64,000 nt of DNA, from positions 43,206-107,205 of the forward strand of contig CAYSZS010000001.1 in the NCBI GenBank assembly GCA_964435575.1. Direction: 5' to 3'. The position numbers and the translations under genes were made by a program. Below the pieces are notes generated by a model that had not been told where the DNA came from, searched no databases, and was given only the letters and a program-made list of their open reading frames with translations. The first letter of the stretch is position 1. Each line of letters starts with the position of its first letter. The stretch comes from an uncultured Gammaproteobacteria bacterium (GTDB lineage Bacteria; Patescibacteriota; Microgenomatia; UBA8517). Shown piece after piece: positions 1 to 12,244 of this stretch.

Positions 1-695
1 TTAAAGTTAAGGATGATAAAGGGAATGAGCTTACATTAAGTGGGATTTTAGCTGGAGGTGGTTTTAAATCGTTTGACTGGAGTAATAGATTGAATAACGC
101 TGGCGATGTTGTGTGGTTGGTTAAAGTTTCAGATGATTCCGTAATCGAGGAATTAAAGTATGGAGAGAAGGGAGGAGTTTGTGTACCAAGTAACGAAAGT
201 GGTTCTATAGGAAAATTGACAGATGGGGCAAGTGGTTCAGAAAGGTTGGAAAGGTTTTCAAAAGACTCAAAAGGATCATCTAATAATAACGGTGTGATAG
301 ATCCATGTCCAACGCCTACGCCTGAGCCAACCGATTCTCCCACTCCAACCACAAAGCCTACAAATACGCCAATACCTAAGCCTACGAGTACGAGTGTGCC
401 TACGTCTAAACCTAAAGCCACAACTACTTTTACTGTTGTTCCCACGATAAAGCAGGAAGATGGTCAGGAAACGGGTGAAGGGCAGACACTTAAATTGGGG
501 GGTGACACTACCAACGAAGTTCTTGGCATAAAAGATGTCGGCGAAAAAGAGTCAGAAACTGCCAATGAAGAAGCGGATAAAAAATTTCCATTTTTAGCCT
601 TAATTCCTATCATATTAGGCGTCACATTAATGGGTAGTTCTTTTTACTATTTTCTAAGAAAGAGAAAAAAAGATTATAATTCTGATGGTGAATAG
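1..695 (+). CDS. Partial (5'-truncated) secreted or surface protein. It has a Pro/Thr-rich linker and a C-terminal hydrophobic anchor followed by a basic tail (RKRKKD).
   Basis: The reading frame is open from the window edge (frame 3) through the ORF called at 90. A PTPTPEPTDSPTPTTKPTNTPIPKPT linker precedes the C-terminal TM segment FLALIPIILGVTLMGSSFYYFL plus RKRKKD. Confidence 0.6.
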   Translation, partial: KVKDDKGNELTLSGILAGGGFKSFDWSNRLNNAGDVVWLVKVSDDSVIEELKYGEKGGVCVPSNESGSIGKLTDGASGSERLERFSKDSKGSSNNNGVIDPCPTPTPEPTDSPTPTTKPTNTPIPKPTSTSVPTSKPKATTTFTVVPTIKQEDGQETGEGQTLKLGGDTTNEVLGIKDVGEKESETANEEADKKFPFLALIPIILGVTLMGSSFYYFLRKRKKDYNSDGE

Positions 696-1122
696 TAATT
701 TGAAAAATAAAATTTTTCGGTTTATTAAATATTGGCTACCTGTATTTATATGGCTCATCATCATTTTTGCTTTTTCAAATAATCCGACGGTAAGGGCTTC
801 CGAAATTCATTGGCGGGATTTTAGTGTCAAGAAGTCGGCTCATGTTATTATCTACGCCATTCTTTCCACTCTGATCTATCGAGCTCTAAAGTCGAATAAT
901 GTTGAGATGAAAAAAACAGGTTATATTTCAGTATTTCTGGCGTCATTTTATGGTATTACAGACGAATTTCACCAATCCTTTACTCCAGGACGTGATCCGA
1001 CTTTTAGAGACATAATTTTTGATACGATTGGTGCCACTTTAGCAATTTATTTTATTTGGAAATTATTGCCTAAGATGCCGGAAAAAGTTAGGCTTTGGGC
1101 AAAAAAACTTGAAATTACATAA
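685..1122 (+). CDS. VanZ-like family membrane protein
   Basis: Small polytopic protein carrying the VanZ-type motif GITDEFHQSFTPGRDPTFRDIIFDTIGA. Confidence 0.7.
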   Translation: MVNSNLKNKIFRFIKYWLPVFIWLIIIFAFSNNPTVRASEIHWRDFSVKKSAHVIIYAILSTLIYRALKSNNVEMKKTGYISVFLASFYGITDEFHQSFTPGRDPTFRDIIFDTIGATLAIYFIWKLLPKMPEKVRLWAKKLEIT

Positions 1123-2128
1123 TATGAAAAAGATATTAGTAACAGGGGGTGGGGGTTACATTGGATCTGTTGCAACCCACCTGCTTCTTCAAGAGGGATA
1201 CGAAGTTGTGGTTATCGACAACTTTTCTACGGGATATAGGCAGCCACTGAAAATGCTTAAGTCCAAGTATAAGTCTAAGTTGAGTTACTACGAAGCTGAT
1301 TTAAGAGACGATTTAACTCGCGTTTTTTATAAGGAAAAGGGGATTGGAGCAGTACTTCATTACGCCGCGTCATGCAGTGTGAACGAATCTATGGAGAACC
1401 CCGAAAAATATTTCCTTAACAATGTTTGCGGATCACAAAATTTGCTTTCGACGATGCTTAAATACAGGGTAAAAAAAATAGTTTTTTCTTCAACATGCGC
1501 TGTTTATGGAGAGGCTAGATATGTGCCAATAGACGAGAACCATCCAACCAGTCCATCAAATCCGTATGGTGAAAGCAAATTGATGATTGAGAAAATGCTT
1601 CGGTGGTATGGGAAGCTCAAGGGTTTAAATTATGTAATCTTAAGATATTTTAATGTTTGTGGAGCAAGCGATGATGCTGAAGTTGGAGATTCTAAAAGTC
1701 CCTCCGTCCTTTTGGTACAAAACGCCGTAAAGGGGGCATTAGGAATAGAGTCGTTTTTTCTGACTTGTCCAAAAGTTGATACGCCTGATGGGACGCCAAT
1801 TAGAGACTATATAAATGTAGTTGATTTAAATGAGGCGCACATTTTAGCTTTGGAGCATCTCTTTAGAGGGGGAAAAAACGAAACTATCAACTTGGGGACG
1901 GGTAAAGGAAATTCTGTTTTGGAAATAGTCAATGTAGTTCAGAAAATAACGGGCGTGAGATTTGATTTACAAAAAGGCGTGGTGAGAAAAGGAGAGTATG
2001 CAAAAATGATCGCGGATATAAAAAAAGCAAAAAGGATTTTGGGTTGGAAACCGAAAAGAAGTCTGGAAGATTCTGTAAAATCTTTAATAAAATGGTATAA
2101 GAAATATCCTTATGGATGGAATAAATAG
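1109..2128 (+). CDS. galE: UDP-glucose 4-epimerase
   Basis: N-terminal Rossmann motif VTGGGGYIGS and the SDR YxxxK catalytic pair (YGESK). Length 339 aa. Classic GalE/NAD-dependent epimerase organisation. Confidence 0.85.
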   Translation: MKLHNMKKILVTGGGGYIGSVATHLLLQEGYEVVVIDNFSTGYRQPLKMLKSKYKSKLSYYEADLRDDLTRVFYKEKGIGAVLHYAASCSVNESMENPEKYFLNNVCGSQNLLSTMLKYRVKKIVFSSTCAVYGEARYVPIDENHPTSPSNPYGESKLMIEKMLRWYGKLKGLNYVILRYFNVCGASDDAEVGDSKSPSVLLVQNAVKGALGIESFFLTCPKVDTPDGTPIRDYINVVDLNEAHILALEHLFRGGKNETINLGTGKGNSVLEIVNVVQKITGVRFDLQKGVVRKGEYAKMIADIKKAKRILGWKPKRSLEDSVKSLIKWYKKYPYGWNK

Positions 2129-2192
2129 CTACACGGTTATATGGATATAAGGCTCTTTTGACAAATCGTCAAGAATTGTATATTTTTAGGCA

Positions 2193-3590
2193 ATGAAGAA
2201 AGTAATACTTTTGGTTTTATTAATCTTTTTTGCTTTAACCATTTTCAAAACAACTTCATTTAAAGAAACTATCTATGCTTCAAAGAGCGTTGATATAGAA
2301 TCTGAAAGGCTTATTGTTAAGTTCAGACGCTTTACCCCGAATATTTTTAGAGAGAAAGCTCTTGAAAGTGCGAAAGCGAACTATTCCGAAGACCTAAGGC
2401 TAAGTGACACGAAAGTGATCCAAGTTCCAAAGGGAGAGTTTTCAAACGCAGCAAAAACCCTTAAAAAGAATATTTTTGTTGAGTATGTTGAGCAAGACTT
2501 TATTGCTGAGACTCAAGAAATGCCCAATGACCCTTATTTCCCGAACCAATGGGGTTTGGAGAAGATAAATGCAAAGGGCGGTTGGGATAAAAGCCATGGA
2601 TTAAATTCAATTGATGTCGCAATTGTTGACACCGGTGTTAACAATTCACATCCTGACTTAGCCGGCAAAATTTCAGCTTCAGTAAATTGCATTTATTCTT
2701 CCTGTCCTGGTTTTACTACAAACGATCCCGACGGACACGGAACGCACGTTGCTGGAATTGCAGCCGGAATAACCAATAATAGTCAGGGAATAGCAGGACT
2801 TTTGTGGGAGGGGAGAATTATGTCTGTAAAAGCTCTGGATGATACAGGAAATGGTTACTACTCCTGGATTGCCAATGGAATAGTTTGGGCGGCCGATAAT
2901 GGAGCAGAAGTCATTAATCTTTCACTCGGAGGAAATTCCAATTCATCAACACTGGCAAATGCGGTTACCTATGCCTGGAATAAAGGGTCTGTCTTGGTTG
3001 CCGCAGCGGGAAACAGTTCTAGCACTTCGCCGAAATACCCTGCTTATTTCTCTAATGTGATTGCAGTTTCCGCAACTGATCAAAACGACGCAAAAGCGTA
3101 CTTTTCGAACTATGGCTCTTGGGTTGAACTAGCGGCACCGGGAGTTTCTATTCTTTCGACATACGAAAATGGTTATGAATATCTTTCGGGGACATCTATG
3201 GCGACGCCTTTTGTTTCAGGACTTGCTGCGCTTATCTTTGCCCAAAATCCTCTCTGGGATAACAAAGACGTAAGAACTCAAATTGAGTCAACAGCAGATA
3301 AAATCGATGGCACGGAGAGCTTTTGGCAATTTGGAAGAATTAATGTCTGCAAGGCACTTGGTTGCATTATTTCAGGATTGACTCCTACACCGACGCCGGG
3401 GGTTTTGCCAACTGCTACATTGACGCCTACATCTAACCCTACACCGATACCAAGTCTGACTCCTACGCTTACTTCAACGCCTACATTAACGCCAACGCCC
3501 TCCCCAACTCCGTCAGTTACTCCTACTCCTACACCGCAAAACCTTCCCTGGTGGTGTAAATATGTCCCCTGGCACTACACTTGTCAATAA
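2193..3590 (+). CDS. Secreted subtilisin-like serine protease (peptidase S8) with a C-terminal Pro/Thr linker and a Trp/Cys-rich tail
   Basis: Signal peptide present. The catalytic triad motifs are VAIVDTGV (Asp), [11 protein letters not shown] (His) and [15 protein letters not shown] (Ser). The C-terminus carries (PT)n repeats and then [13 protein letters not shown]. Confidence 0.9.
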
Positions 3591-3619
3591 TTTTCCCTGT
3601 CTTGCAAATGTAGTGTAGA

Positions 3620-4108
3620 ATGTTTTTTACGATGCACATTTTTGCAGTAATTTTGGCGGTTTGTATTTTGACCGTTGGTTTGATAGTAGCTAGAATTCAA
3701 AACCCATCGTTGAGTAATATTTATCGACAAAAAGAAGTTTTATCCGAGAAAGTATTACCAACACAAACTCCGACATATATACCTACCCCATTTCCAACCT
3801 CAGTTCCCAAAGACACACAAATAGATAGTTATAAATATCCAAACTCTTCTGTCATTTCCTCTTCTGGTAATAGTTTGTCTTTACAAAGTGATGATATGAC
3901 AGATGTAATAACCGGTTGGTATAAAGAAAAAATTGAAAATGAAGGAATGAGTGTTACGACTTTTGTAAAAACCCGCGCAAACGACAAAGTTTTGAATAAG
4001 TTGGTTGGAGTAAAAGAGGACGAGCAAATAAATGTCGAGATAAGTCAGGAGGGAGCTGGACAAACAGTTGACATATCAGTTAGTTTTTTGAATGAAAGTG
4101 ACAACTGA
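3620..4108 (+). CDS. N-terminally membrane-anchored hypothetical protein with a Pro/Thr-rich linker
   Basis: An N-terminal TM helix is followed by PTQTPTYIPTPFPTSVP. I recognise no conserved domain. Confidence 0.45.
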   Translation: MFFTMHIFAVILAVCILTVGLIVARIQNPSLSNIYRQKEVLSEKVLPTQTPTYIPTPFPTSVPKDTQIDSYKYPNSSVISSSGNSLSLQSDDMTDVITGWYKEKIENEGMSVTTFVKTRANDKVLNKLVGVKEDEQINVEISQEGAGQTVDISVSFLNESDN

Positions 4109-4116
4109 ATTCCCGC

Positions 4117-4145
4117 TTGACAAGATCTGTGGGCTTGGGTAACAT
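4117..4145 (+). promoter_or_regulatory. Sigma70-like promoter (TTGACA-17-TAACAT)
   Basis: Read directly from the sequence. It lies upstream of the 4202 gene. Confidence 0.45.
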
Positions 4146-4201
4146 ACGTGCAAAGTTCCTTTCTGCCTTCTAGACCACTTTCATTGAATAAACAATTTAA
4201 T

Positions 4202-4969
4202 ATGGCAACCAGAGAAATTACTTTTCAAATACCAACTATTGATAGACTAGAAATCATTAATAGGTTGGCAGATTTTACAAATAAAATTACTTCATTAAAA
4301 AATAGAGTAGGGCATTATCTTAGTGATTTTTTAACAAAACTGAAAGAAAGAAGAAAAGGTAGAGACGAATTTCAGAGTACTTCTTTAGGCAATAAAAGAT
4401 TTGATTTTTCTTCTTCCAAATTAAGAAAACCCTTAAAAAATATACTATTACTAATAATTGCTTTGGCTATAATCTTCGGTATAGGGAAGGTGGTAAGTAG
4501 CATTTCACTACAAAACTCGTCCTCGGGTAAGTTAGAAGTAGAAAAAGCAAAAAAAAGCCAAGTATTAAATAGAGAATTTTCTTTCCCGCTTAAAGACTCA
4601 CAAGGCGAGCAAATCGGAGAAGTGAAATATATGGTGGAAAAAGCGGAGTTAATGGACGAGATTATCGTAGAAGGTAAACGCGCAAAAGCAGTCAAAGGTA
4701 GAATATTTCTTATTTTTACTATTAAAATTTCGAACGGATACACTCAAGCCATAGAGATGAACACGAAAGACTATGCACGCTTATCTGTTAACGGTAATTT
4801 TGATGAATGGCTTGCTCCGGACATTCACAACGACCCAGTTGAAGTACAGGCGATTTCTACAAAGTACACCAGGCTTGGCTTCCCCATTAATGAAAACGAC
4901 AAAAACTTAGTACTTCGAATAGGCGAAATAGAAGGCGAGAAACAAGAAATTCCTCTTGAACTAAAGTAA
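4202..4969 (+). CDS. Hypothetical single-pass membrane protein
   Basis: The ORF track starts at a GTG at 4148. However, a good sigma70-like promoter (TTGACA-17-TAACAT at 4117-4145) ends 3 nt before that GTG. The ATG at 4202 (MATREITF...) is therefore the more plausible start. An internal TM segment is LLLIIALAIIFGI. Confidence 0.5.
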   Translation: MATREITFQIPTIDRLEIINRLADFTNKITSLKNRVGHYLSDFLTKLKERRKGRDEFQSTSLGNKRFDFSSSKLRKPLKNILLLIIALAIIFGIGKVVSSISLQNSSSGKLEVEKAKKSQVLNREFSFPLKDSQGEQIGEVKYMVEKAELMDEIIVEGKRAKAVKGRIFLIFTIKISNGYTQAIEMNTKDYARLSVNGNFDEWLAPDIHNDPVEVQAISTKYTRLGFPINENDKNLVLRIGEIEGEKQEIPLELK

Positions 4970-4975
4970 AGATTC

Positions 4976-5155
4976 ATGGCGCTTGATTTATCAAATCAAA
5001 AAATATCCGAAGCTTTGATACTAGAGATTAAGGACGCTTTGAAAAGCGTTAAATCTCATGGAAGCGTGGAAATCTATATCCAAGGAGGGCTGGTAACTCA
5101 GATTACTGTGCGTAACATCAAAAAAACTAACAGTAAATTCGGCCAAAAATCCTAA
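4976..5155 (+). CDS. Small DUF2292 (YezD)-like protein, 59 aa
   Basis: Not in the supplied ORF track because it is under 60 aa. The translation is MALDLSNQKISEALILEIKDALKSVKSHGSVEIYIQGGLVTQITVRNIKK..., which matches the YezD/DUF2292 signature (YGSVEIxIQxGKVVQI). Confidence 0.5.
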   Translation: MALDLSNQKISEALILEIKDALKSVKSHGSVEIYIQGGLVTQITVRNIKKTNSKFGQKS

Positions 5156-5261
5156 TCCTCATAACTCAAGCAAAAAGGACATAATCCCATCGACGCTTAC
5201 TATACATAACAGAAAATCTATAGAACAGTGGGAACGATTATATCTTTGCAATATTGGCCTA

Positions 5262-5290
5262 TTGACAAAACAAAATGAGCTTGTTATATA
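5262..5290 (+). promoter_or_regulatory. Sigma70-like promoter with an extended -10 (TTGACA-17-TGtTATATA). It drives a roughly 260-nt structured leader ahead of repeat-protein gene A.
   Basis: Read directly from the sequence. The -35 is at 5262-5267 and the -10 at 5285-5290. Confidence 0.5.
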
Positions 5291-5555
5291 TAAATATCCA
5301 GTCCATAGATATTAACCTATATCTATAATAAAACTGAGTAAAATGTATCTCTGCCCAAATGACATGTAATTTTTTGAGAGCTGGCCGCAAACGGAGGCTT
5401 TCCGGTTTGACTTCGTCCAACGGACGATTTTAGTCGAATCGGGGAGTCTCCGTTTTCGTTTGAAAGCGGGGTGTTTAGGGTGAAGTGCCTAGCCCCGTTA
5501 GATGCGTAAGCTATCTAACTGGGGTGACCAAAAAGAAAGGGGGTGAAAATAAATA

Positions 5556-6863
5556 ATGACTAAACTACAGAAGAAAATTGCAACAGCTATTGCAACAGGT
5601 GCACTATTGTTTCAGACTGTTATTCCAGTTTTGGCACAAAGCACAACTTTAGTTATTTCTGGAAACGGTGCAGAGACTGATAACGACATCAATCTTAGTC
5701 AGACAACTACAACAACCGTTGTTCAGAATAACGTGGCAAATATAAGTAACAATGTAGACGCCGACGCTGAAACCGGTGAAAATGATCAAAATTACAATAC
5801 AGGTGGACCTGTATCTCTTACTACGGGCGACGCAACAACAGGAGTTGCTATATCAAATACTGCAAACTCAAACGTTGCCGAGGTAAGTGGTTGTTGCGAT
5901 GTTGATGTTGATGTAGAGATTAGCGATAACGGTTACAAAAGTGATAACACCGCTAATTTGAAACTGGATAATTCGACTGCTTTATTCCAGAACAATTATG
6001 CCTACATCAAGAATGAGGTCGACGCCGAATCTGAAACCGGTGAAAATGATCAAAATTACAACACAGGTGGACCTGTTAGCATGGAAACCGGAGATGCGGA
6101 TACCACTGTTCTTATAGCAAATAAAGCCAATTCCAATTGGGCTAAAATCGGCGACGGAAGTGGTGGTGCATCAGTTAGCTTAAAGATTATTGGTAATGGT
6201 GCAGAAACCGATAACGACATTAATTTGTTGTTCGATCGTTCTTTGTTACTAACCCAGGATAATTACGCTAACATCAAAAATAAAGTAGATGCCGATGCTG
6301 AAACCGGTGAAAATGATCAAAATTACAACACAGGTGGACCTGTTAGCCTGGAAACAGGCGACGCAACTACCGTAGTTGGAATTGATAATTTGGCTAACTT
6401 CAACTTCGCAGATCTTAATTGCGGTTGTCTTTTGGATGTCGTTGCAAAAATAGCCGGTAACGGCTATAACGCAGATAGCGACATAAGCGCAGCTCTTTTA
6501 GATACTAAAGCTGCTTTCCAAACCAACAGCTACGTTTGCGGATATGGTTACCAATTCCCATGGGGTGGAGGAGGTGATTTATCCTTCCCATGGTACGGTT
6601 ATCAGAAGAAAGCCTGTAATGATGTCGACGCAGAAGCTGAAACCGGTGAAAATGATCAAAATAAAAATACCGGTCACAGTGCTGATCCGTCTATGGAAAC
6701 CGGTGACGCTACGACATGGGTCGATATTGAAAACACGGCCAACTCTAACGTTTTGATTGAAGGCGGTTTGGGTTTACCAGAACTTCCAGATTTCGATTTC
6801 GAATTTGATCTTGGATTCAACTGGCTCCTTTGGTGGGGTCTGTTGTCTGGAAATTCAAGCTAA
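5556..6863 (+). CDS. Secreted N/T/G-rich repeat protein, paralog A
   Basis: Signal peptide present. There are four copies of a roughly 90-aa module (GNGAETDNDINL ... NxxNxDA(E/D)TGENDQNYNTGGPVS(L/M)(T/E)TGDA(T/D)T ... N(S/F)N). The CC/CxC motifs are GCCDVDVDV and NCGCLLDV. A strong RBS (AAAGGGGGTGA) lies upstream. Confidence 0.85.
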   Translation: MTKLQKKIATAIATGALLFQTVIPVLAQSTTLVISGNGAETDNDINLSQTTTTTVVQNNVANISNNVDADAETGENDQNYNTGGPVSLTTGDATTGVAISNTANSNVAEVSGCCDVDVDVEISDNGYKSDNTANLKLDNSTALFQNNYAYIKNEVDAESETGENDQNYNTGGPVSMETGDADTTVLIANKANSNWAKIGDGSGGASVSLKIIGNGAETDNDINLLFDRSLLLTQDNYANIKNKVDADAETGENDQNYNTGGPVSLETGDATTVVGIDNLANFNFADLNCGCLLDVVAKIAGNGYNADSDISAALLDTKAAFQTNSYVCGYGYQFPWGGGGDLSFPWYGYQKKACNDVDAEAETGENDQNKNTGHSADPSMETGDATTWVDIENTANSNVLIEGGLGLPELPDFDFEFDLGFNWLLWWGLLSGNSS

Positions 6864-6925
6864 GTAGACTTTGGGAACTCGGGGTTGGTCTTCCCGCACT
6901 TCGGAGGACCACCCTGAAGCCCAGA

Positions 6926-6949
6926 GACAGGTACCGTACGGTACCTGTC
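6926..6949 (+). terminator. Perfect 24-nt GC-rich palindrome (GACAGGTACCGTACGGTACCTGTC). Hairpin and likely terminator after repeat-protein gene A.
   Basis: Read directly. It lies 63 nt after the stop at 6863, inside a GC-rich patch (6864-6960) of an AT-rich genome. It is not followed by a clean U-tract. Confidence 0.4.
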
Positions 6950-7151
6950 CAGAGTTACGGATTAAACGGATTTTATACGGGTTTCACAGATTACAAAATT
7001 AACTAATTAACAGATCACAATATATAAAAAATCTGCCCAAATGAAAATTATTTTTGAAAATATAGAAATTAGGCTGATAAACCAAACTAAAGGGAATGAA
7101 TTCGGACAAGATTTGAGATTTTTACGAAAAATAAAAGATAGGCTAGCAAAT

Positions 7152-9452
7152 ATGGTAAGAAGAAAAGTTAAAGTAAAGAAATTACTGGCTACATTTATGA
7201 TGGCTTTAGTATTGTTGGTGCAAAATCCGTTAGCTTTGGTAGCACAGGAAGCACCAACCCCTCCCCCATCACCAACCGCACCCGCTGAGCCGACGCCTCT
7301 ACCAGATGCTACGGAACTAACTCCGCCGGAAACACAAACTCCTCCAACTGAACCGACCCCGCCGCCTCAACCCACTGCACCGACTGCTCCAACCGCACCT
7401 ACTTCGCCGACTGCTCCTTCCTATGAGACGTATGTGACACCTACCCCCATTCCTTTACCGACGACATATTCAAGCTCATCGTCGAACCAGAGTGCGGGTT
7501 CTACGGCATCAACAAGTGGAGATTCAGGGAGCAGTACTACGCTATCCTCTCCGACCTCCGGAGCAGGGAGTCAGAATCAAAACGGACAAGCCGGGTCAAC
7601 TACGATAGCAACCGGGGACGCAACGAATGTCGGAAACATTTCAACTACAGCAAACAACAATCTTACGTCATCCCCGCAGGTTTCGGGGTCGGGAAGCGGA
7701 GCTCAGGTGGTCAATTCGGGTAATGGGACAAGCTCGACCAATTCAGGGTCAGTTGGAGTAACAAGCGATACAAATACCATTCAGAATAATTCTGCCATCG
7801 TAGGAAATGATTTGAATCAGGAAACGACAACTGGCGATAATTCAGCCTCTATGAATACTGGAGGAGATAACGTAATAACAACGGGGGATGCAAATACAAC
7901 TGGAACTATAGTTACCGGTGTGAATACGAATCTTGATGCCGTGACCGTTTATGAATTCAATATTTCTGACGATCATCTGGGTGACTATGTTTTGGACCTT
8001 GCTAATGCAACCTGTATATCTGGTTGCACTCCCGCTGACGTAACTGTAAAAAATGACGGGAATGGTGAAGGTTCAACTAATACCGGAGATGTCGATATTG
8101 ACCTAACTGATAATACTTTCCAGACAAACGATGCCTTGATAGAAAACAATATGAATTTAATATCAGATACTGGTGACAACAAGACGAGTATGAATACTGG
8201 TGGTGATAACACGATAACAACTGGTGATGCAAATGTGTCGGGAAGTGTAGTTAATATGGTTAATACCAATATAGTTGGTAATGTCGTCTATGCGGTTGTT
8301 AACATTTTTGGCGATTTGGTAGGAGACATAATTTTACCTGACGGATCCATACTTGCCTGCTGCGTCGGTTCGGTAACTGCCACAAATGTGGCTAATGGAT
8401 CGGATTCGACTAACACAGTTAATATAGATCAAAGTAGTAGCACAACTTCCTCACAGTTTAATAATGTGGATATTCAAAATAATTTGGTTCTAGATGCCAC
8501 AACAGGAGAAAACGACGTTAACAAAAATACAAACGGTGCATCATCTGTTACAACCGGGGATGCAAACTTGGTTGCACAAGTTCTGAATGTTGCCAATACC
8601 AATCTTGTCGGAGGCAATTGGTGGCTTGTTCTGGTAAACGAAGCAGGACGCTGGATCGGAAGGATAATCGGCGCAGACGGACAAAATTATGGAGGGTCCG
8701 GAGGGTTTGAATTTATAGTTAGTGAGTCCGGAGAAATAACTGCAGTAAATTCAGGAAACGGAGCGGATTCAACAAACACAGCCAATGTCAGCCAAAGTAC
8801 AAATACCACTACCTCGCAGACAAACAATGCCACAATTGTAAACAATGTTAACTTGAGTTCAAATACTGGAGGCAATAATGCTAATATGAATACAGGTGGT
8901 AATAATTCAATAGCAACCGGCGATGCAAACGTCATTGCAAGTATTGTTAACTTTGTAAACAATAATATTACCGGTGGTGGTAAACTCTTCGTGACAGTCA
9001 TTAATGTATTCGGTAGCTGGTTGGGAGATTTTGTTGGGCCAGGACAGACAAAAGAAAATAACGATTCAGGAAATTCTGGAGGTGGCTTGGGGGGAGTAGG
9101 AGGTAATGCTTCACAAGGAGATAGTCAGGAAAGTGGTAGTGCTCAACAAAGTGGGAATTCTGAGGTAAGTAGTTCTTCAATAGCCACCAGTGTTTTAGGG
9201 TTGTTTATAAATAGTACGGGTAATGGTTCGGGAAGTATAAGTTTTGGAAATGACCAAGAGTCAGTCCAGGCAGTAATGGGTGTAAGTGATGATGGTCAGG
9301 GTGGTAATCCAACCGCCGGAAATAAAGTGGTACGCATAAATCTGGCTTGGCTTACACCTCTTATTCCTCTCGGAATATTAGTCTTATTGAGAAAAAGAAG
9401 AAAAGTGACCAAAGTTGGTGCTTCTGCCGGGACAATTAAAGCATATCAGTAG
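7152..9452 (+). CDS. Secreted N/T/G-rich repeat protein, paralog B. It has a Pro/Thr-rich N-terminal linker and a C-terminal TM anchor plus RKRRK tail.
   Basis: The ORF is open from 7041, but the signal peptide starts at the ATG at 7152 (MVRRKVKVKKLLATFMMALVLLV). The repeated module is (TGDNxxSMNTGGDNxITTGDANxxGxxVxxVNTNxxG). The CC motif is ACCVGS. The C-terminus is LTPLIPLGILVLLRKRRK. Confidence 0.85.
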   Translation: MVRRKVKVKKLLATFMMALVLLVQNPLALVAQEAPTPPPSPTAPAEPTPLPDATELTPPETQTPPTEPTPPPQPTAPTAPTAPTSPTAPSYETYVTPTPIPLPTTYSSSSSNQSAGSTASTSGDSGSSTTLSSPTSGAGSQNQNGQAGSTTIATGDATNVGNISTTANNNLTSSPQVSGSGSGAQVVNSGNGTSSTNSGSVGVTSDTNTIQNNSAIVGNDLNQETTTGDNSASMNTGGDNVITTGDANTTGTIVTGVNTNLDAVTVYEFNISDDHLGDYVLDLANATCISGCTPADVTVKNDGNGEGSTNTGDVDIDLTDNTFQTNDALIENNMNLISDTGDNKTSMNTGGDNTITTGDANVSGSVVNMVNTNIVGNVVYAVVNIFGDLVGDIILPDGSILACCVGSVTATNVANGSDSTNTVNIDQSSSTTSSQFNNVDIQNNLVLDATTGENDVNKNTNGASSVTTGDANLVAQVLNVANTNLVGGNWWLVLVNEAGRWIGRIIGADGQNYGGSGGFEFIVSESGEITAVNSGNGADSTNTANVSQSTNTTTSQTNNATIVNNVNLSSNTGGNNANMNTGGNNSIATGDANVIASIVNFVNNNITGGGKLFVTVINVFGSWLGDFVGPGQTKENNDSGNSGGGLGGVGGNASQGDSQESGSAQQSGNSEVSSSSIATSVLGLFINSTGNGSGSISFGNDQESVQAVMGVSDDGQGGNPTAGNKVVRINLAWLTPLIPLGILVLLRKRRKVTKVGASAGTIKAYQ

Positions 9453-9473
9453 ACCTTACTGCCCGTTGAGCAA

Positions 9474-10673
9474 ATGCTTACAAAATTAAGACGGGTTATC
9501 GCGATAATATTAGTTTTAACTCTACTTTGGGGTAGGGGAATTTCGTTTGTCAAAGCAGAAGAGTTTGTGATAACCGATAACGGCTCCGGTTCTTCAAATG
9601 AAGTAAATATTACGCAAGAAAGTCAGACGACGATAACACAAACTAATGCCGGCGAGACTTCTAACAGTGTTGATACAAATACAAATACGGGCGGTAATTC
9701 AGTTTCTGAAAATACAAATGGGGATACCTCGATTACAACAGGAGAGGCAGCCAGTCAGGTAGAGATAGAAAATAGTGGAAACACTTCGACTGTAAATGTA
9801 GGTTGTTGTCCCTCTCCTACAGATGCAACAATTTCGGGAAACGGAAGCGATTCGGCAAATGCTATTAATGTTGCCTCTTCAAATAGTACAACTATTACCT
9901 CGAATCAGACTGCAGTAGTTATGAATAATATCAACGGAACAGCTTCGACAGGTTCAAATTCGGCTAATTGGAATACTAGCGGAAGCGTATCAATCACAAC
10001 GGGAAATATTTATGCCAGTGTAAACCTCATAAATGATCCGATAAATACGAGTTCCGTTAGTGTAAGGAGCGGCGATCCAACTTTAATAGCGAAAATTTCA
10101 GGAAACGGCAGTGAATCGATAAACGATATCAATGCTGATTTTACAAATGATCTAAATGTTTATACCAATTTCTCCGCAGATATTAAGAATTATCTATTGT
10201 GGGACCTGGAAACAGGAGGAAATCAAGCTAATGGAAATTCTGGTGGGAGCGTGACAATAAAAACAGGGGACATTGACTTAGAAGTTTTTATTAAAAACTT
10301 TGTAAATTTAGGTAATGTTGAAGTAGATTGTTGTTTTGATCCTGGAAAACCAAAGGACGAAGAGCCTAAAGAGGAACCGAAAGATGAAGATGGCGGTAAC
10401 GGCGGGAATGGCGGCGGCGGCGGTGGGGGCGGCGGCGGCGGAGGAGGAGGACAGATATTACCCGAAGCGGCCGCAACTCAGGCGGGGGGTCCTGGAATAA
10501 TTGGTTTATCCGATACTTCAAGTGAAGGTGCTCAAGCTCTATTTTTCTTCATTGCCCTTACCATGATTTCTTTGGGGGGTAAGATAGTTGTTGATGAATT
10601 ATTCCCTCAAAAAAACTTTGCTTCTTTAAAAAAAAGTTTCCGACTAGTAGAGTCTCCGACTCGGAGAGAGTAA
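9474..10673 (+). CDS. Secreted N/T/G-rich repeat protein, paralog C. It has a poly-Gly tract and a C-terminal hydrophobic anchor.
   Basis: Signal peptide present. It carries GNGS(D/E)S(A/I)N(A/D)IN modules and CC motifs (VGCCPSPT, VDCCFDPG). A GGNGGNGGGGGGGGGGGGGG run is followed by ILPEAAAT and then the TM segment ALFFFIALTMISLGG. Confidence 0.85.
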   Translation: MLTKLRRVIAIILVLTLLWGRGISFVKAEEFVITDNGSGSSNEVNITQESQTTITQTNAGETSNSVDTNTNTGGNSVSENTNGDTSITTGEAASQVEIENSGNTSTVNVGCCPSPTDATISGNGSDSANAINVASSNSTTITSNQTAVVMNNINGTASTGSNSANWNTSGSVSITTGNIYASVNLINDPINTSSVSVRSGDPTLIAKISGNGSESINDINADFTNDLNVYTNFSADIKNYLLWDLETGGNQANGNSGGSVTIKTGDIDLEVFIKNFVNLGNVEVDCCFDPGKPKDEEPKEEPKDEDGGNGGNGGGGGGGGGGGGGGQILPEAAATQAGGPGIIGLSDTSSEGAQALFFFIALTMISLGGKIVVDELFPQKNFASLKKSFRLVESPTRRE

Positions 10674-10685
10674 AATAAGCTTCTT

Positions 10686-11240
10686 ATGAAGAATGTAACT
10701 TCGGTACCTAAGATTACACTGGGTATTTCACTTTTATTTTTGGGCATGTTACTTTTTTTGGGAGGAAAAGTATCGCCAAGTTCTCAAAGCATAAGTTTTG
10801 AGAGCGAACCTGTAAAGGTAGAAAAACTTTCAAGCGATGAAGTTGATGATGCTAAAATTCCCAAAAGAATTATTATTCCACGATTGAGCTTAGACTTGGA
10901 AGTTAAAAAAGCAGATATTGTCAACGGATATTGGGAGGTGTTTCCCGATACCGCAGCCTGGGGATCGGGATCTGGAATTCCAGGAGAAAAAGGAAATCAA
11001 ATTATATTTGCTCATGCGAGAGAGGGACTCTTTTTACCACTTCAATCAATTAAAGTAGGTGTGAAATTATATATCTTAAGCGATTTGGGATGGTTCCAAT
11101 ATGAGGTTAGGGAGATAAAAGAAGTATATCCTAATCAGATTGAGGTGATTGCGCCGACCGAAGATGAAACACTCACTCTTTACACCTGTAGCGGGTTCTC
11201 TGACTCAAAAAGGCTAATAGTCATTGCAAAAAGAGTTTAG
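10686..11240 (+). CDS. Sortase family transpeptidase
   Basis: N-terminal TM anchor. The active-site motifs are the His (IIFAHAR), the Cys (TLTLYTCSG, matching the sortase TLxTC signature) and a downstream Arg (SKRLIVIAKRV). The overall arrangement parallels SrtA. Confidence 0.85.
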   Translation: MKNVTSVPKITLGISLLFLGMLLFLGGKVSPSSQSISFESEPVKVEKLSSDEVDDAKIPKRIIIPRLSLDLEVKKADIVNGYWEVFPDTAAWGSGSGIPGEKGNQIIFAHAREGLFLPLQSIKVGVKLYILSDLGWFQYEVREIKEVYPNQIEVIAPTEDETLTLYTCSGFSDSKRLIVIAKRV

Positions 11241-11284
11241 AATTCTCTTGAAAGAGTGCCTTCGAAAGTTTAAGATAAGAGGAA

Positions 11285-12244
11285 ATGAATACTGTTGCAG
11301 TTACGCTATCCCATTTTCTTTTTCCAAGGCATAGTAATAATCACAAGGCAAAACTACTACACTCGACCTCTTTAATGCTCTTGGCTCTTTTTTTGATCTT
11401 CTATCAGGTAATCTTGCATGCTCTTCCTTTGACTGGTATCAGAATTTTGGGATATGCCGCCAATATTCCTACAAGCGAGGTAATTAATCTGACAAATCAA
11501 AAAAGGGCCGAAAATGGTGTAGCCAGCCTATCTACGAGTGTGCTTTTAACCGAAGCGGCTAGACTCAAAGGTGAGCATATGCTTGTCAATGATTATTGGG
11601 CTCATACGGCTCCTGATGGAACTGAACCCTGGACATTTTTTACCGATGTTGGATATAAATATAGGTACGCCGGAGAGAATTTGGCTCGTGACTTCTCTAA
11701 TCCCAATTCGGCAATAGAGGCTTGGTTGGCCTCTCCTTCTCATCGGGAAAATATGCTATCAGGTAAATATAAAGAAATAGGCGTTGCTGTTGTTGAGGGA
11801 GATTTAGGAGGAGTGGATACTACAATAATTGTTTCGTTTTTCGGTACAAATATTTCCGATACCACCTCACAGGTTCCTGTAGTTGCTGCTAAACCCCAAA
11901 TCGAGGTAACTCCGACGCCGCAATCATTAGCGACATTTACTCCAACCCCGCCGTATCTTGCTGGGGTTGTCACTCCAACCCAAGGCATTGAGAAGATAAT
12001 AACATTGGAAGAACCAGTTCAGGAAAGGGCAGGTAGATATCAAATTCTATTTTCTCCTTTTGAATCCACAAAAGAAGTAGCCGTGGCTACCACGGTTTTA
12101 CTTCTTGTTGTGTTAATTATTGACGGAATAATAGTTACCAGGAGAAATATCACAAGAATTGGAGGAAGAACATTTGCTCATATTGCTTTTTTGGGAATGA
12201 TTTTGGCCATACTTTTAATTGCGAAAGTGGGAGAAATACTTTAA
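11285..12244 (+). CDS. Secreted CAP/SCP/PR-1-like domain protein with a Pro/Thr linker and C-terminal TM segments
   Basis: The CAP-domain motifs are GEHMLVNDYWAH, HRENMLSGKYKEIGVAVVEG and GENLA. A PT-rich linker (TPTPQSLATFTPTPP) and C-terminal hydrophobic helices follow. Confidence 0.8.
   Translation: MNTVAVTLSHFLFPRHSNNHKAKLLHSTSLMLLALFLIFYQVILHALPLTGIRILGYAANIPTSEVINLTNQKRAENGVASLSTSVLLTEAARLKGEHMLVNDYWAHTAPDGTEPWTFFTDVGYKYRYAGENLARDFSNPNSAIEAWLASPSHRENMLSGKYKEIGVAVVEGDLGGVDTTIIVSFFGTNISDTTSQVPVVAAKPQIEVTPTPQSLATFTPTPPYLAGVVTPTQGIEKIITLEEPVQERAGRYQILFSPFESTKEVAVATTVLLLVVLIIDGIIVTRRNITRIGGRTFAHIAFLGMILAILLIAKVGEIL

Follow-up and report, generated by a model that had tools for sequence, protein, structure and literature searches.

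What do the three secreted repeat proteins encoded beside a sortase in this genome build, and how would they be held at the cell surface? The window analysed here, a 64-kb stretch of DNA, comes from a Woesebacteria genome of the Microgenomates, a large uncultivated branch of the CPR (Patescibacteria) whose cell envelope is, to our knowledge, essentially uncharacterised in molecular terms. A preliminary description of the locus had listed five open reading frames: three paralogous genes for secreted repeat proteins (here A, B and C), then a sortase and a CAP-domain protein. All five are present at the coordinates it gave, and ORF, HMM and autocorrelation analyses confirm the arrangement (Table 1). 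The best explanation, to which we give a slightly better than even chance, is that the operon encodes the core of a wall- and membrane-anchored cell-surface assembly, conserved throughout the Microgenomates, in which an unanchored A would associate with anchored B and C. The core of the earlier reading, a sortase-dependent surface module built on an undescribed beta-solenoid repeat, is supported by the lack of database relatives of the module, by synteny, by the signals of C and by their co-variation with the sortase.

Table 1 Features of the operon and its surroundings, in window coordinates
Feature	Position	Strand	Details
Gene N, 3′ part	90..695	+	product ends VLGIKD..(~15 aa)..KKFP + TM + RKRKK
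Promoter-like TTGACA-17 nt-TATATA	5262..5290	+	upstream of A; by eye
Small hairpin, A 5′ leader	5476..5491	+	from folding; leader z -4.7
GAAGUGC in 5′ hairpin loop	5482-5488	+	exact complement of 3′ hairpin loop
Shine-Dalgarno-like AAAGGGGGTGA	5536..5546	+	precedes A ATG; read from sequence
Gene A	5556..6863	+	435 aa; four ~88-aa modules
A signal peptide			cleavage near VLA/QS, residues 27/28
A Cys pairs	5892-5897; 6420-6428		C113-C114; C289/C291
RNA hairpin directly 3′ of A stop	6878..6919	+	conserved, covarying
3′ hairpin loop (N)GCACUUC	6896-6902	+
Second hairpin	6926-6949	+	perfect; follows the 6878..6919 hairpin
Gene B	7041/7152..9452	+	803 aa from 7041; 766 aa from 7152
B layout			N-terminal extension, signal peptide, Pro/Thr-rich linker, modules, Ser/Gly linker, C-terminal anchor
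B Cys pairs	8013-8027; 8358-8363		CxxxC; CC
B C-terminal anchor	9336..9404	+	INLAW motif + hydrophobic helix + RKRRK
Gene C	9474..10673	+	399 aa; signal peptide, three modules, acidic/poly-Gly linker, sorting signal
C CC pairs			residues 111-112 and 286-287
C sorting signal	10497..10670	+	IIGLSDTSS, hydrophobic segment, basic tail
C-tail stretch with candidate sortase signal			..GGPGIIGLSDTSSEGAQ..
IIGLSDTSS	10497-10523	+	LSDTS 10506-10520; where orthologs carry LPxTG
C hydrophobic segment ALFFFIALTMISLGGKIVV	10536-10592	+
C basic tail KKSFRLVESPTRRE	10629-10670	+
Sortase	10686..11240	+	184 aa; TM residues 10-27; His110, Cys168, Arg176
CAP/YkwD-domain membrane protein	11285..12244	+	PF00188, TIGR02909

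A, B and C are paralogs made of a module of ~88 residues rich in Asn, Thr and Gly. BLOSUM autocorrelation peaks at shifts of 88-89 residues in A (z 8.5-9.3 against shuffles), 87-88 in C (z 5.9-7.1) and 111-121 in B (z 5.4-6.4), and searches with a module HMM count 4-5 copies for A, three for C and about five for B (up to seven partial matches), with no match in any other ORF of the window. The B modules are longer (~113 aa) and carry hydrophobic hairpin inserts. The module is matched by 3,164 cluster representatives among 1.84 billion proteins and has no relative in Pfam, NCBIfam or the PDB sequences, in agreement with the suggestion that the repeat belongs to an undescribed family; nor do A, B or C contain an SLH, CWB2 or known S-layer family domain in Pfam or NCBIfam, though they may nonetheless act in an S-layer-like way. 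The predicted fold is an all-beta solenoid rather than an Ig-like CnaA/CnaB domain, and the AlphaFold model of C (pLDDT 72.5) shows the three modules and a disordered linker, with residues 351-376 forming a TM helix. Flat, Thr/Asn-rich solenoids might bind ice, mineral or polysaccharide, or might be enzymes of the pectate/alginate-lyase type, with the sortase merely displaying them. We regard such functions as very improbable: Foldseek returns no match at E<=1e-3 (TM-scores ~0.04), Pfam and NCBIfam contain no catalytic domain or motif that matches A, B or C, and the invariant residues are Asn, Gln and Gly that recur at the same place of each module and look structural rather than active-site-like.

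In our synteny survey the order A-B-C-sortase is kept across the Microgenomates, distant lineages included. Downstream sequence suffices at 59 loci: 56 of these have the A-B pair, and 49, once a sortase HMM is applied, have a sortase in the operon; no sortase adjoins A-B in the other ten, so C and the sortase are either elsewhere or missed there. The intergenic gap is a median 102 nt for A-B, 31 nt for B-C and 10 nt for C-sortase. Other lineages have a further member, D, and the set comprises three or four paralogs. Across candidate phyla A and B remain ~45% identical, figures inflated by their Asn/Thr/Gly-rich composition, versus ~31% for the sortase. Because of this level of identity, a core structural role appears likelier than the adhesin function first proposed. 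The gene products could, alternatively, be independent proteins that happen to have a domain in common, C being wall-anchored, B membrane-anchored and A released into the medium, for instance as a binding protein or toxin-like effector, with no higher-order assembly. We consider this somewhat unlikely, since gene order and gene set are strictly conserved across candidate phyla and the identity of A and B is unlike that of fast-evolving adhesins. Moreover, close Cys pairs sit at equivalent module boundaries, two modules apart in A and likewise in C, and in both A and C the first module opens the mature protein, so that nothing is left to form an N-terminal cap.

How each protein might be retained can be read from its C-terminus. 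C looks like the sole likely sortase substrate of the three. In 35 of 54 C orthologs the tail consists of LP[AVITER](T/S)G, a TM segment and basic residues; the remaining orthologs, those of the window lineage included, carry (V/I)LGL[SA]xT[SA]G, which in the window lineage takes the form (I/V)(I/L)GLSxTS(S/G) in place of LPxTG. Window C has no LPxTG pentapeptide and ends, at its extreme C-terminus, in the hydrophobic segment and positively charged tail of the TIGR01167 architecture, a model that one C ortholog passes (18.8 against a cutoff of 15.9). When the tails are aligned on their shared VLG pre-motif, LSxTS does not fall exactly over LPxTG. The preliminary description was right that there is an anchor architecture with no canonical LPxTG as far as window C goes, and the B tail is of a different, INLAW type. 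None of the motifs it offered (NPTAG, LPEAA, KKFPFLA) is at the LPxTG position, which IIGLSDTSS occupies; an ILPxAAA stretch is conserved within the window sublineage only. The tail of B, [KR]xxx-(I/V/L/F)N(L/F)A(W/Y) followed by a TM segment and basic residues, is present in 71/71 orthologs, and all 70 ORFs with a tail of this type in 1.4 Mb encode module proteins. Because this tail does not vary with sortase type, B is probably held by a plain membrane anchor or by one that is handled separately. A has neither a membrane nor a wall anchor and ends in a conserved acidic/aromatic tail (ELPxFDFxFDF..NW..LW). Sortase-dependent anchoring, proposed for the module as a whole, thus appears likely for C and unlikely for B, whose tail is independent of sortase type, and A has no anchor. 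The other end of B probably also differs from the original annotation, which started it at 7152: the start at 7041 is favoured because the resulting 37-aa extension before the signal peptide, M(K/R)II(I/F)ENIEIR(L/I)(I/V)N, is shared by L001 and L007, both closely related, and in looser form by L019.

The sortase itself is unambiguous, matching PF04203 at 74 bits (cutoff 26.6, E 1e-20) and TIGR01076 at 46.2 bits (cutoff 39.35), with B. anthracis SrtA (2kw8, E 3.5e-9) as its closest solved structure. His110 (FAHAR), Cys168 (TLTLYTC, LYTCSG) and Arg176 (SKRLIV) occupy the catalytic positions of sortases, and at 49 loci the operon sortase has kept these residues and the N-terminal membrane anchor. 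Against the NCBIfam models for classes A-F and GN, the window enzyme, a member of an ‘HAR/TL(Y/F)TCSG’ clade, scores best with class D (41.3 and 40.3 bits; cutoffs 140 and 165), and the highest scores among its operon relatives are 72 bits (class C) and 55 bits (class E), where the cutoff is 160. The operon sortases are unclassified clades that reach no class cutoff. Signal type tracks sortase clade in all 43 loci compared, 28 pairing LPxTG with HSS-QTC enzymes and 15 pairing LGLS with HAR-TCSG enzymes; a crude NJ tree places 1 to 5 switches, so the co-variation could stem from few evolutionary events. At one locus (L009) a giant LPATG protein adjoins a different sortase paralog and C, with its LGLS signal, adjoins an HAR-type sortase. 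This co-variation indirectly supports cleavage of C by the sortase and linkage to peptidoglycan.

We propose that the membrane-bound sortase cleaves C within or beside (I/V)(I/L)GLSxTS(S/G), a stand-in for LPxTG, and would link it to peptidoglycan through its ~50-aa Gly/acidic linker, with B remaining tethered in the membrane. A would be the most abundant subunit, its mature N-terminus free of capping residues, and would stay on the cell by associating, end-to-end or side-by-side, with the homologous solenoids that B and C provide. Its co-assembly with them is suggested by paralogy, synteny and matching Cys spacing. That A is the putative major subunit is suggested by its clear Shine-Dalgarno sequence, with nothing comparable in the upstream sequences of B, C or the sortase, and by the long, structured A-B gap. 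The product could be a fibre, sheath or layer spanning the wall, a housekeeping envelope component rather than a variable adhesin. By contrast, a covalent, sortase-polymerised pilus would have the cleaved C-terminus of C joined to a Lys or the N-terminus of a further subunit, such as A or C, rather than to peptidoglycan. As in pilus islands, the sortase gene lies inside a structural operon, the LPxTG-associated operon sortases are nearest the class C (pilin polymerase) model (63-72 bits), and Lys298 of A, at the start of module 4, is nearly invariant. We nevertheless find a pilus quite improbable: those scores fall far under the class C cutoff of 160, the window sortase scores best with class D and general sortase models and its HAR-type relatives with class E/D, only one of three or four paralogs carries a sorting signal, no Lys of C is invariant or nearly so, the predicted fold is a beta-solenoid, not an Ig-like pilin, and the long flexible linker of C is typical of wall-spanning anchors. 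In sortase-assembled pilins each polymerised subunit combines a sorting signal with a conserved pilin-motif Lys on an Ig-like CnaA/B fold, a set of traits that A, B and C do not share.

Within the anchored assembly that we favour, the Cys pairs may staple A to the solenoids of B and C. Every Cys string quoted in the earlier account (GCCDVDVDV, NCGCLLDV, ACCVGS, VGCCPSPT, VDCCFDPG) is there, and the pairs, kept in >90% of orthologs, hold up; strict vicinality does not, because the spacing varies (CC, CxC, CxxC, CxxxC), and ‘close pairs’ is the better term. A model for such a role is offered by analogy with the Bacillus Ena appendages, whose subunits are likewise paralogs and have conserved pairs of nearby Cys residues that reportedly crosslink neighbouring subunits. 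Ena has a jellyroll fold (DUF3992) and no sortase, whereas A, B and C have no Pfam match. These endospore appendages are described as disulfide-linked pili (bioRxiv 10.1101/2020.08.21.260141).

Expression of A may have a regulatory layer of its own. The hairpin directly 3′ of its stop codon has a stem paired at 79% versus 59.5% in shuffled alignments (0/500) and a covariation score of 0.64 versus 0.29, and the A-B gap is structured in 98% of loci. A search of 4900-7200 with 4,227 Rfam covariance models gave sub-threshold chance matches only, none over 6878-6949. Of 80 loci, 51 have the GAAGTG core of the 5′ motif between -20 and -94, compared with 7.8% of random 300-nt windows, and in four loci compensatory changes keep the GCACUUC loop and the GAAGUGC leader matched across lineages. 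The promoter-like element would imply a 5′ leader of roughly 250 nt; it is weak evidence, because it was read by eye and the consensus scan does not list it. With conserved, mutually complementary loops at both its ends, the A mRNA is in our view a candidate case of bacterial 5′-3′ mRNA-end communication. If the two motifs were instead inverted repeats at the DNA level, serving as recombinase sites or as paired operators for a protein on either side of gene A, the same compensatory changes would be expected. This reading appears fairly unlikely to us, given that the 3′ copy lies in the loop of a hairpin with a covarying stem, a single-strand property, that the common core spans just 6-9 nt and that both motifs fall within the likely transcript; in addition, every locus has A in one and the same orientation relative to B, which gives no hint of inversion. 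For pairing between the mRNA ends, a comparison is provided by Staphylococcus aureus icaR, whose 3′ motif reportedly pairs with the Shine-Dalgarno region and represses translation; in A the 5′ motif stands apart from the Shine-Dalgarno sequence, ~57 nt before the start codon, and the 3′ motif is displayed in a hairpin loop. The likeness is in a short 3′ motif complementary to the 5′ UTR of its own mRNA, as described for icaR (PMC3868564).

More broadly, the anchored assembly resembles the chaplins of Streptomyces, in which wall-anchored long paralogs tether secreted short ones (PMC5618241); ChpA-C are described as anchored through LAXTG by a class E sortase and ChpD-H as secreted (PMC5618241; PMC5148588). 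Common to both are secreted paralogs built on one domain, some sortase-anchored and others unanchored and co-assembling (here presumably), conserved Cys residues and, in the window lineage, a non-LPXTG sorting motif. The likeness is of system logic only: Pfam gives no PF03777 match, the modules are ~88 aa and predicted all-beta versus ~55-aa chaplin domains, there is an extra membrane-anchored paralog (B), the sortase is inside the operon, and the setting is ultra-small cells of the CPR rather than aerial hyphae. Curli, with a major subunit CsgA and an anchored nucleator CsgB, and the Fap functional amyloids differ in having a repeat four times shorter, and in the present system there is no outer membrane or CsgG-type secretion, anchoring being by sortase and TM helix. 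A, B and C have no PF07012 match, nor any Pfam match at E<=1, and hhalign of the A family with a manually entered E. coli CsgA sequence gives a probability of 0.3%. The LPXTG beta-solenoid adhesins, such as the L. reuteri SRRP binding region and S. pneumoniae PfbA, are single, strain-variable proteins handled by housekeeping sortase A, whereas the present set comprises several paralogs, has a dedicated sortase and is kept throughout a superphylum. A bolder version, which we advance only tentatively and hold well short of an even chance, is an undescribed Microgenomates-wide envelope polymer in which open-ended, uncapped A (joined by D in other lineages) would stack on two homologous nucleators, sortase-anchored C and membrane-bound B, would be locked by inter-subunit disulfides of the Cys pairs and would have its output set by kissing mRNA ends. 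Curli and chaplins would then have a Gram-positive-type, sortase-nucleated analogue, the sortase acting on C through a new, LSxTS-type motif instead of LPxTG; the polymer is possibly what has been observed as filaments or a surface layer on ultra-small cells of the CPR.

A sortase family whose substrate is not known is reported to occur in nearly all Microgenomates (PMC6744442); the operon described here offers a likely one, encoded together with the enzyme and belonging to a new beta-solenoid surface family. The paired switch of sortase clade and motif, from LPxTG to (I/V)LGLSxTS, amounts to a natural specificity experiment and may yield a sortase with a new ligation motif. A, B and C rank as strong candidates for the principal surface structure on Microgenomates cells and could serve cryo-ET, metaproteomics, antibodies and FISH-like labelling in host-symbiont studies.

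Two neighbouring genes lie outside the conserved core. The CAP protein was correctly identified (PF00188, E 7e-16; TIGR02909, YkwD), and its inclusion in the module does not hold, the gene being a neighbour in only ~11 of 85 loci, in the window’s Woesebacteria sublineage. Upstream, the partial product of gene N, which lacks the repeat module, had been assigned the same type of anchor: its hydrophobic segment and basic tail are there and an LPXTG is not, the TIGR01167 match (17.4 bits, cutoff 15.9) being confined to the hydrophobic and basic stretch. It is possibly a second anchored surface protein.

The gene cluster in the window forms a conserved operon that includes its own sortase, and its three secreted paralogs follow three targeting modes: A is unanchored, B is membrane-anchored and C carries a sorting signal. 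The preliminary description had proposed a sortase-dependent surface module, which we support here with refinements, and its five open reading frames (A, B, C, the sortase and a CAP-domain protein) lie where it placed them. A, B and C each consist largely of Asn, Thr, Gly and Ser, and the repeat they were said to share is borne out by autocorrelation far above shuffled sequences, with periods of 88–89 residues in A (z ~9), 87–88 in C (z ~7) and 111–121 in B (z ~5–6). The ~88-residue module has the consensus xISGNGxxSxNxxN...Q.N.A.I.NNV....TGxNxxNxNTGGxVSITTGDA...V.I.N..N.N, which includes invariant positions for N, G and T. Its HMM matches all three proteins and nothing else across the 64-kb window, where a search for further sortase substrates or module proteins found none. 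The reading frame of B stands as first described, but probably not its start: the 37 codons before position 7152 (7041–7151) encode M-K-I-I-F-E-N-I-E-I-R-L-I-N, an extension conserved in close relatives, with the motif kept at the protein level in loci L001 and L007, looser in L019 and absent from other lineages. B thus probably starts at 7041, with an unusual conserved extension ahead of its signal peptide.

Features of the operon in the window and at related loci
Feature	Coordinates	Length or strand	Description
Gene A	5556–6863	435 aa	Sec-type signal peptide at start
Gene B	7152–9452, more likely 7041–9452		Sec-type signal peptide
Gene C	9474–10673	399 aa	Sec-type signal peptide at start
Sortase	10686–11240		HAR type
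CAP/YkwD gene	11285–12244		downstream of sortase
5′ leader motif	5482–5488, within hairpin 5476–5491		GAAGUGC, ~57 nt upstream of A start codon
3′ hairpin	6878–6949, loop 6896–6902		loop GCACUUC, just after A stop codon
Cys pairs (predicted models)	A residues 113–114 and 289/291; C residues 111–112 and 286–287
Peptides for the two signal types			GGPGIIGLSDTSSEGAQ versus SILPATGNYL
(V/I)(L/A/M)G motif	519–536 (partial upstream gene N), 9189–9206 (B), 10497–10523 (C)		e.g. SVLGAMLPATG, VLGIKD, SVLGLF
Fourth paralog D	L009–L085, ~0.1–1.5 kb downstream of sortase	minus strand	signal peptide, two modules, one CxC pair, no anchor
Giant non-module protein	L009:1266–8296	1840 aa	ends EVLGASTELPATG + TM + basic tail
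Giant non-module protein	L059:955–5463	1502 aa	ends EVLGASTELPATG + TM + basic tail

Conservation was assessed at 85 loci from genomes and metagenomes, 80 recovered by genome scan and 5 by direct contig look-up. Usually A (~420 aa) comes first, followed by B (~730 aa), then C (~380 aa, in some cases a short form of ~190 aa) and the sortase (~190 aa). Where at least 5.5 kb is available downstream of A, B is present at 56 of 59 loci and a sortase HMM places the enzyme in the operon at 49 of 59; other loci have a sortase a few kilobases upstream. A fourth paralog of ~200 aa, D, often stands convergent to the operon (34 loci) and is absent from the window. The CAP gene does directly follow the sortase and encodes a CAP/YkwD membrane protein, as first described, but we rejected it as a component of the module: it occupies this position at only ~11 of 85 loci, all in the window's Woesebacteria sublineage, and is replaced elsewhere by glycosyltransferases or D. 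Identity between the window and distant lineages is ~45% for A and B, 38% for C and 31% for the sortase, values inflated by biased composition. The role of the system would be a structural, housekeeping one, rather than that of a variable adhesin.

Searches of Pfam and PDB with the repeat matched no described family, and A, B and C gave nothing relevant in Pfam, NCBIfam or PDB sequences; the only matches of C to PDB entries, which we dismissed, fall on the poly-Gly linkers of engineered scFv/MHC constructs. A has a 100% identical database entry and hundreds of full-length orthologs of 410–440 aa, named ‘hypothetical’ save for two clearly spurious source names, and without a Pfam domain among them. 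They derive from Woese-, Ames-, Gottesman-, Levy-, Davies- and Chisholmbacteria, all groups of the Microgenomates. A single-module profile searched against 1.84 billion sequences hits 3164 cluster representatives, 2081 of them at E ≤ 1e-10; their lengths peak at ~410–440, ~500 and ~720–800 aa, corresponding to A-like and B-like architectures. The earlier guess of a β-solenoid is supported as regards fold class, although no closely related structure has been solved; lyase-like top Foldseek matches in the PDB were discarded (none at E ≤ 1e-3, TM-scores ~0.04). Mature A and C open directly with module 1, leaving no residues for an N-terminal cap. In module 4 of A (residues 328–354, window 6537–6617), a Gly/aromatic-rich insertion, CGYGYQFPWGGGGDLSFPWYGYQKKAC, carries two extra Cys at its borders and is modeled with low confidence.

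The gene after C encodes a sortase, as the preliminary description held (PF04203, E 1e-20), with His110, Cys168, Arg176 and an N-terminal TM helix. Comparison of ortholog C-termini points to C as its probable substrate. At 35 of 54 loci, C ends in LP[AVITER](T/S)G, a hydrophobic segment and a YLRLRSGRSP-like tail; at the rest, (V/I)(L/I)GL[SA]x[TA][SA][GS] precedes the hydrophobic segment. The window's lineage belongs to this non-LPxTG group and has the highly conserved consensus GGPGI(I/V)GLSDTSS. The operon sortases likewise fall into two sequence types, FAHSS...LILQTC(T/W)P and FAHAR...TL(Y/F)TCSG, the latter being that of the window. The sorting motif co-varies with the sortase clade: signal and enzyme types pair at 28 plus 15 loci with no exceptions, and along a crude neighbor-joining tree of A the type switches one to five times. 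Neither type reaches the NCBIfam class cutoffs. The nearest classes are C for the FAHSS type and E/D for the HAR-type relatives tested, and the window enzyme scores best against class D models. We found no literature assigning a substrate or surface structure to a Microgenomates sortase.

Three C-terminal strings had been offered as candidate recognition motifs, and comparison of homologs supports none: NPTAG is reduced to T(A/L)G(K/N)K in close relatives, and other lineages lack it; LPEAA belongs to an ILPxAAA element conserved only in the window's sublineage, upstream of the orthologs' LPxTG position; and KKFPFLA is part of N, an unrelated upstream protein. EF0750_LPXTG matches from NCBIfam in some C orthologs cover the tail only and fall below cutoff. 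A (V/I)(L/A/M)G motif does recur in B, C, N and the giant LPATG proteins, where it precedes the membrane anchor by 2–45 residues. Because its distance to the anchor varies too much, we rejected this ‘VLG/VAG’ pre-motif as the signal; it may represent an element that precedes sorting signals throughout the lineage, or else a protease site. Extra sortase paralogs occur in some genomes. At L009, a giant protein ending in EVLGASTELPATG and a TM segment is followed by its own, different sortase (VTLMTCWPPG type). The two immediately precede the A-B-C-sortase operon, in which C (VLGLSAAAG) adjoins a HAR-type enzyme; a single genome can thus carry two or more sortase/substrate pairs that differ in motif.

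The C-terminus of B is uniform: in each of the 71 complete orthologs, [KR]-x-x-x-(I/V/L/F)N(L/F)A(W/Y) is followed by ~18 hydrophobic residues and a basic tail, and in 1.4 Mb of loci this type of tail occurs in module proteins only (70/70). It is identical in both sortase lineages, which argues that the operon sortase does not act on B and that B is instead a membrane-anchored member. In A orthologs the C-terminus is a conserved acidic/aromatic stretch, ELPxFDFxFDF..NW..LW, with no TM segment, and D likewise lacks an anchor.

RNA elements flank gene A, the only gene of the operon with a strong Shine-Dalgarno sequence compared with B, C and the sortase. Median spacers are 102 nt (A-B), 31 nt (B-C) and 10 nt (C-sortase), and the A-B spacer folds far better than shuffles at 98% of loci (median z −6.2; coding controls −0.57). 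Its 3′ hairpin has a GUAGGG/CCCUAC-like outer stem and an 8-nt loop holding CACUUC at 63 of 70 loci. In a gapless alignment anchored on the loop, the inner 7-bp stem covaries (79% paired versus 59.5% shuffled, 0/500; slid controls 37–47%; score 0.64 versus 0.29 shuffled); RNAalifold on a MAFFT alignment of the spacer gave none, as indels put the stems out of register. The hairpin has no Rfam match and is no generic element, occurring once in the window, and 43 times after A versus 21 elsewhere in 1.4 Mb. As an intrinsic terminator we rejected it: a consensus scan of 6863–7040 found none, and the run after the hairpin is A-rich, not U-rich.

The 3′ loop GCACUUC is perfectly complementary to GAAGUGC in the 5′ leader, a motif that the window and close relatives present in a small hairpin loop. 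GAAGTG lies 20–94 nt upstream of A at 51 of 80 loci, versus 7.8% of random windows. At 70% of loci the loop is perfectly complementary, over 6 nt or more, to the leader of the same locus (shuffled 16%, coding 13.5%), and at 47% over 7 nt or more (4.4% and 1.6%). Moreover, variants compensate: UCACUUC/GAAGUGA in L011, AACACUUC/(GA)AGUGUU in L017 and L078, and CGUACUUU/AAAGUA in L054. These complementary, co-changing motifs suggest that the 5′ and 3′ ends of the A mRNA pair with each other, a candidate kissing interaction; the complementarity could also be read at the DNA level, as a GAAGTGC/GCACTTC inverted repeat, which is the weaker alternative. Pairing of the mRNA ends could plausibly control how stable the message for A, the putative major subunit, is or how well it is translated, and separate its expression from that of B, C and the sortase. 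A precedent is the 5′/3′-UTR interaction of icaR (PMC3868564).

The Cys strings of the preliminary description are all present, but strict vicinality did not hold: the pairs, kept in >90% of orthologs, are CC, CxC, CxxC or CxxxC by lineage. In predicted models they sit at inter-module turns after modules 1 and 3 in both A and C, giving the same two-module spacing. Variable spacing within pairs, together with two-module separation in an elongated fold, argues against simple intramolecular pairing of both sites, and intermolecular disulfides stapling the subunits are an attractive idea. Such staples would resemble those of Ena fibres (bioRxiv 10.1101/2020.08.21.260141) and the Cys-dependent function of chaplins (PMC5618241). 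MdbA-like oxidoreductases are enriched in CPR (PMC6744442). In a distant lineage, a DsbA/thioredoxin-like gene (L004:8148–8801) lies ~1.2 kb upstream of A, with one unannotated gene between. Mature A has six rather than four Cys in 30 of 83 orthologs.

In the assembly we envisage, the sortase would attach C to peptidoglycan, and A would be the abundant subunit, retained by associating with its paralogs B and C. Among known systems, that of chaplins and their sortase (PMC5618241) comes closest in logic, and the curli scheme of a major subunit with an anchored nucleator is comparable. The family belongs to neither: tests for chaplin membership were negative, and the A family shows no homology to curlin by Pfam or hhalign (probability 0.3% against E. 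coli CsgA). Sortase-dependent surface assembly is of an already-known kind; new here are the protein family, the variant sorting motif with its unclassified sortase clade, and an unusual, conserved apparent pairing of mRNA ends at the gene for the putative major subunit.

The region upstream of A is an envelope-related gene neighborhood. In the Woesebacteria sublineage it is syntenic (window 685–4969, L001) and encodes VanZ-like, NAD-dependent epimerase and S8 subtilase proteins, the last with a Thr/Pro-rich tail, as well as two secreted/membrane proteins of unknown type and a small DUF2292 ORF at ~4976–5155; an FtsE/FtsX/M23 cluster lies further upstream in L001. An entry named Candidatus Woesebacteria bacterium RIFCSPHIGHO2_01_FULL_39_17 matches the window sortase at 100% identity. 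Many MAG records with this Microgenomates operon (L007, L011, L020 and others, from binchicken/SRP co-assemblies) are titled ‘uncultured Gammaproteobacteria bacterium’ and one (L023) Nealsonbacteria; these titles are likely taxonomic mislabels.
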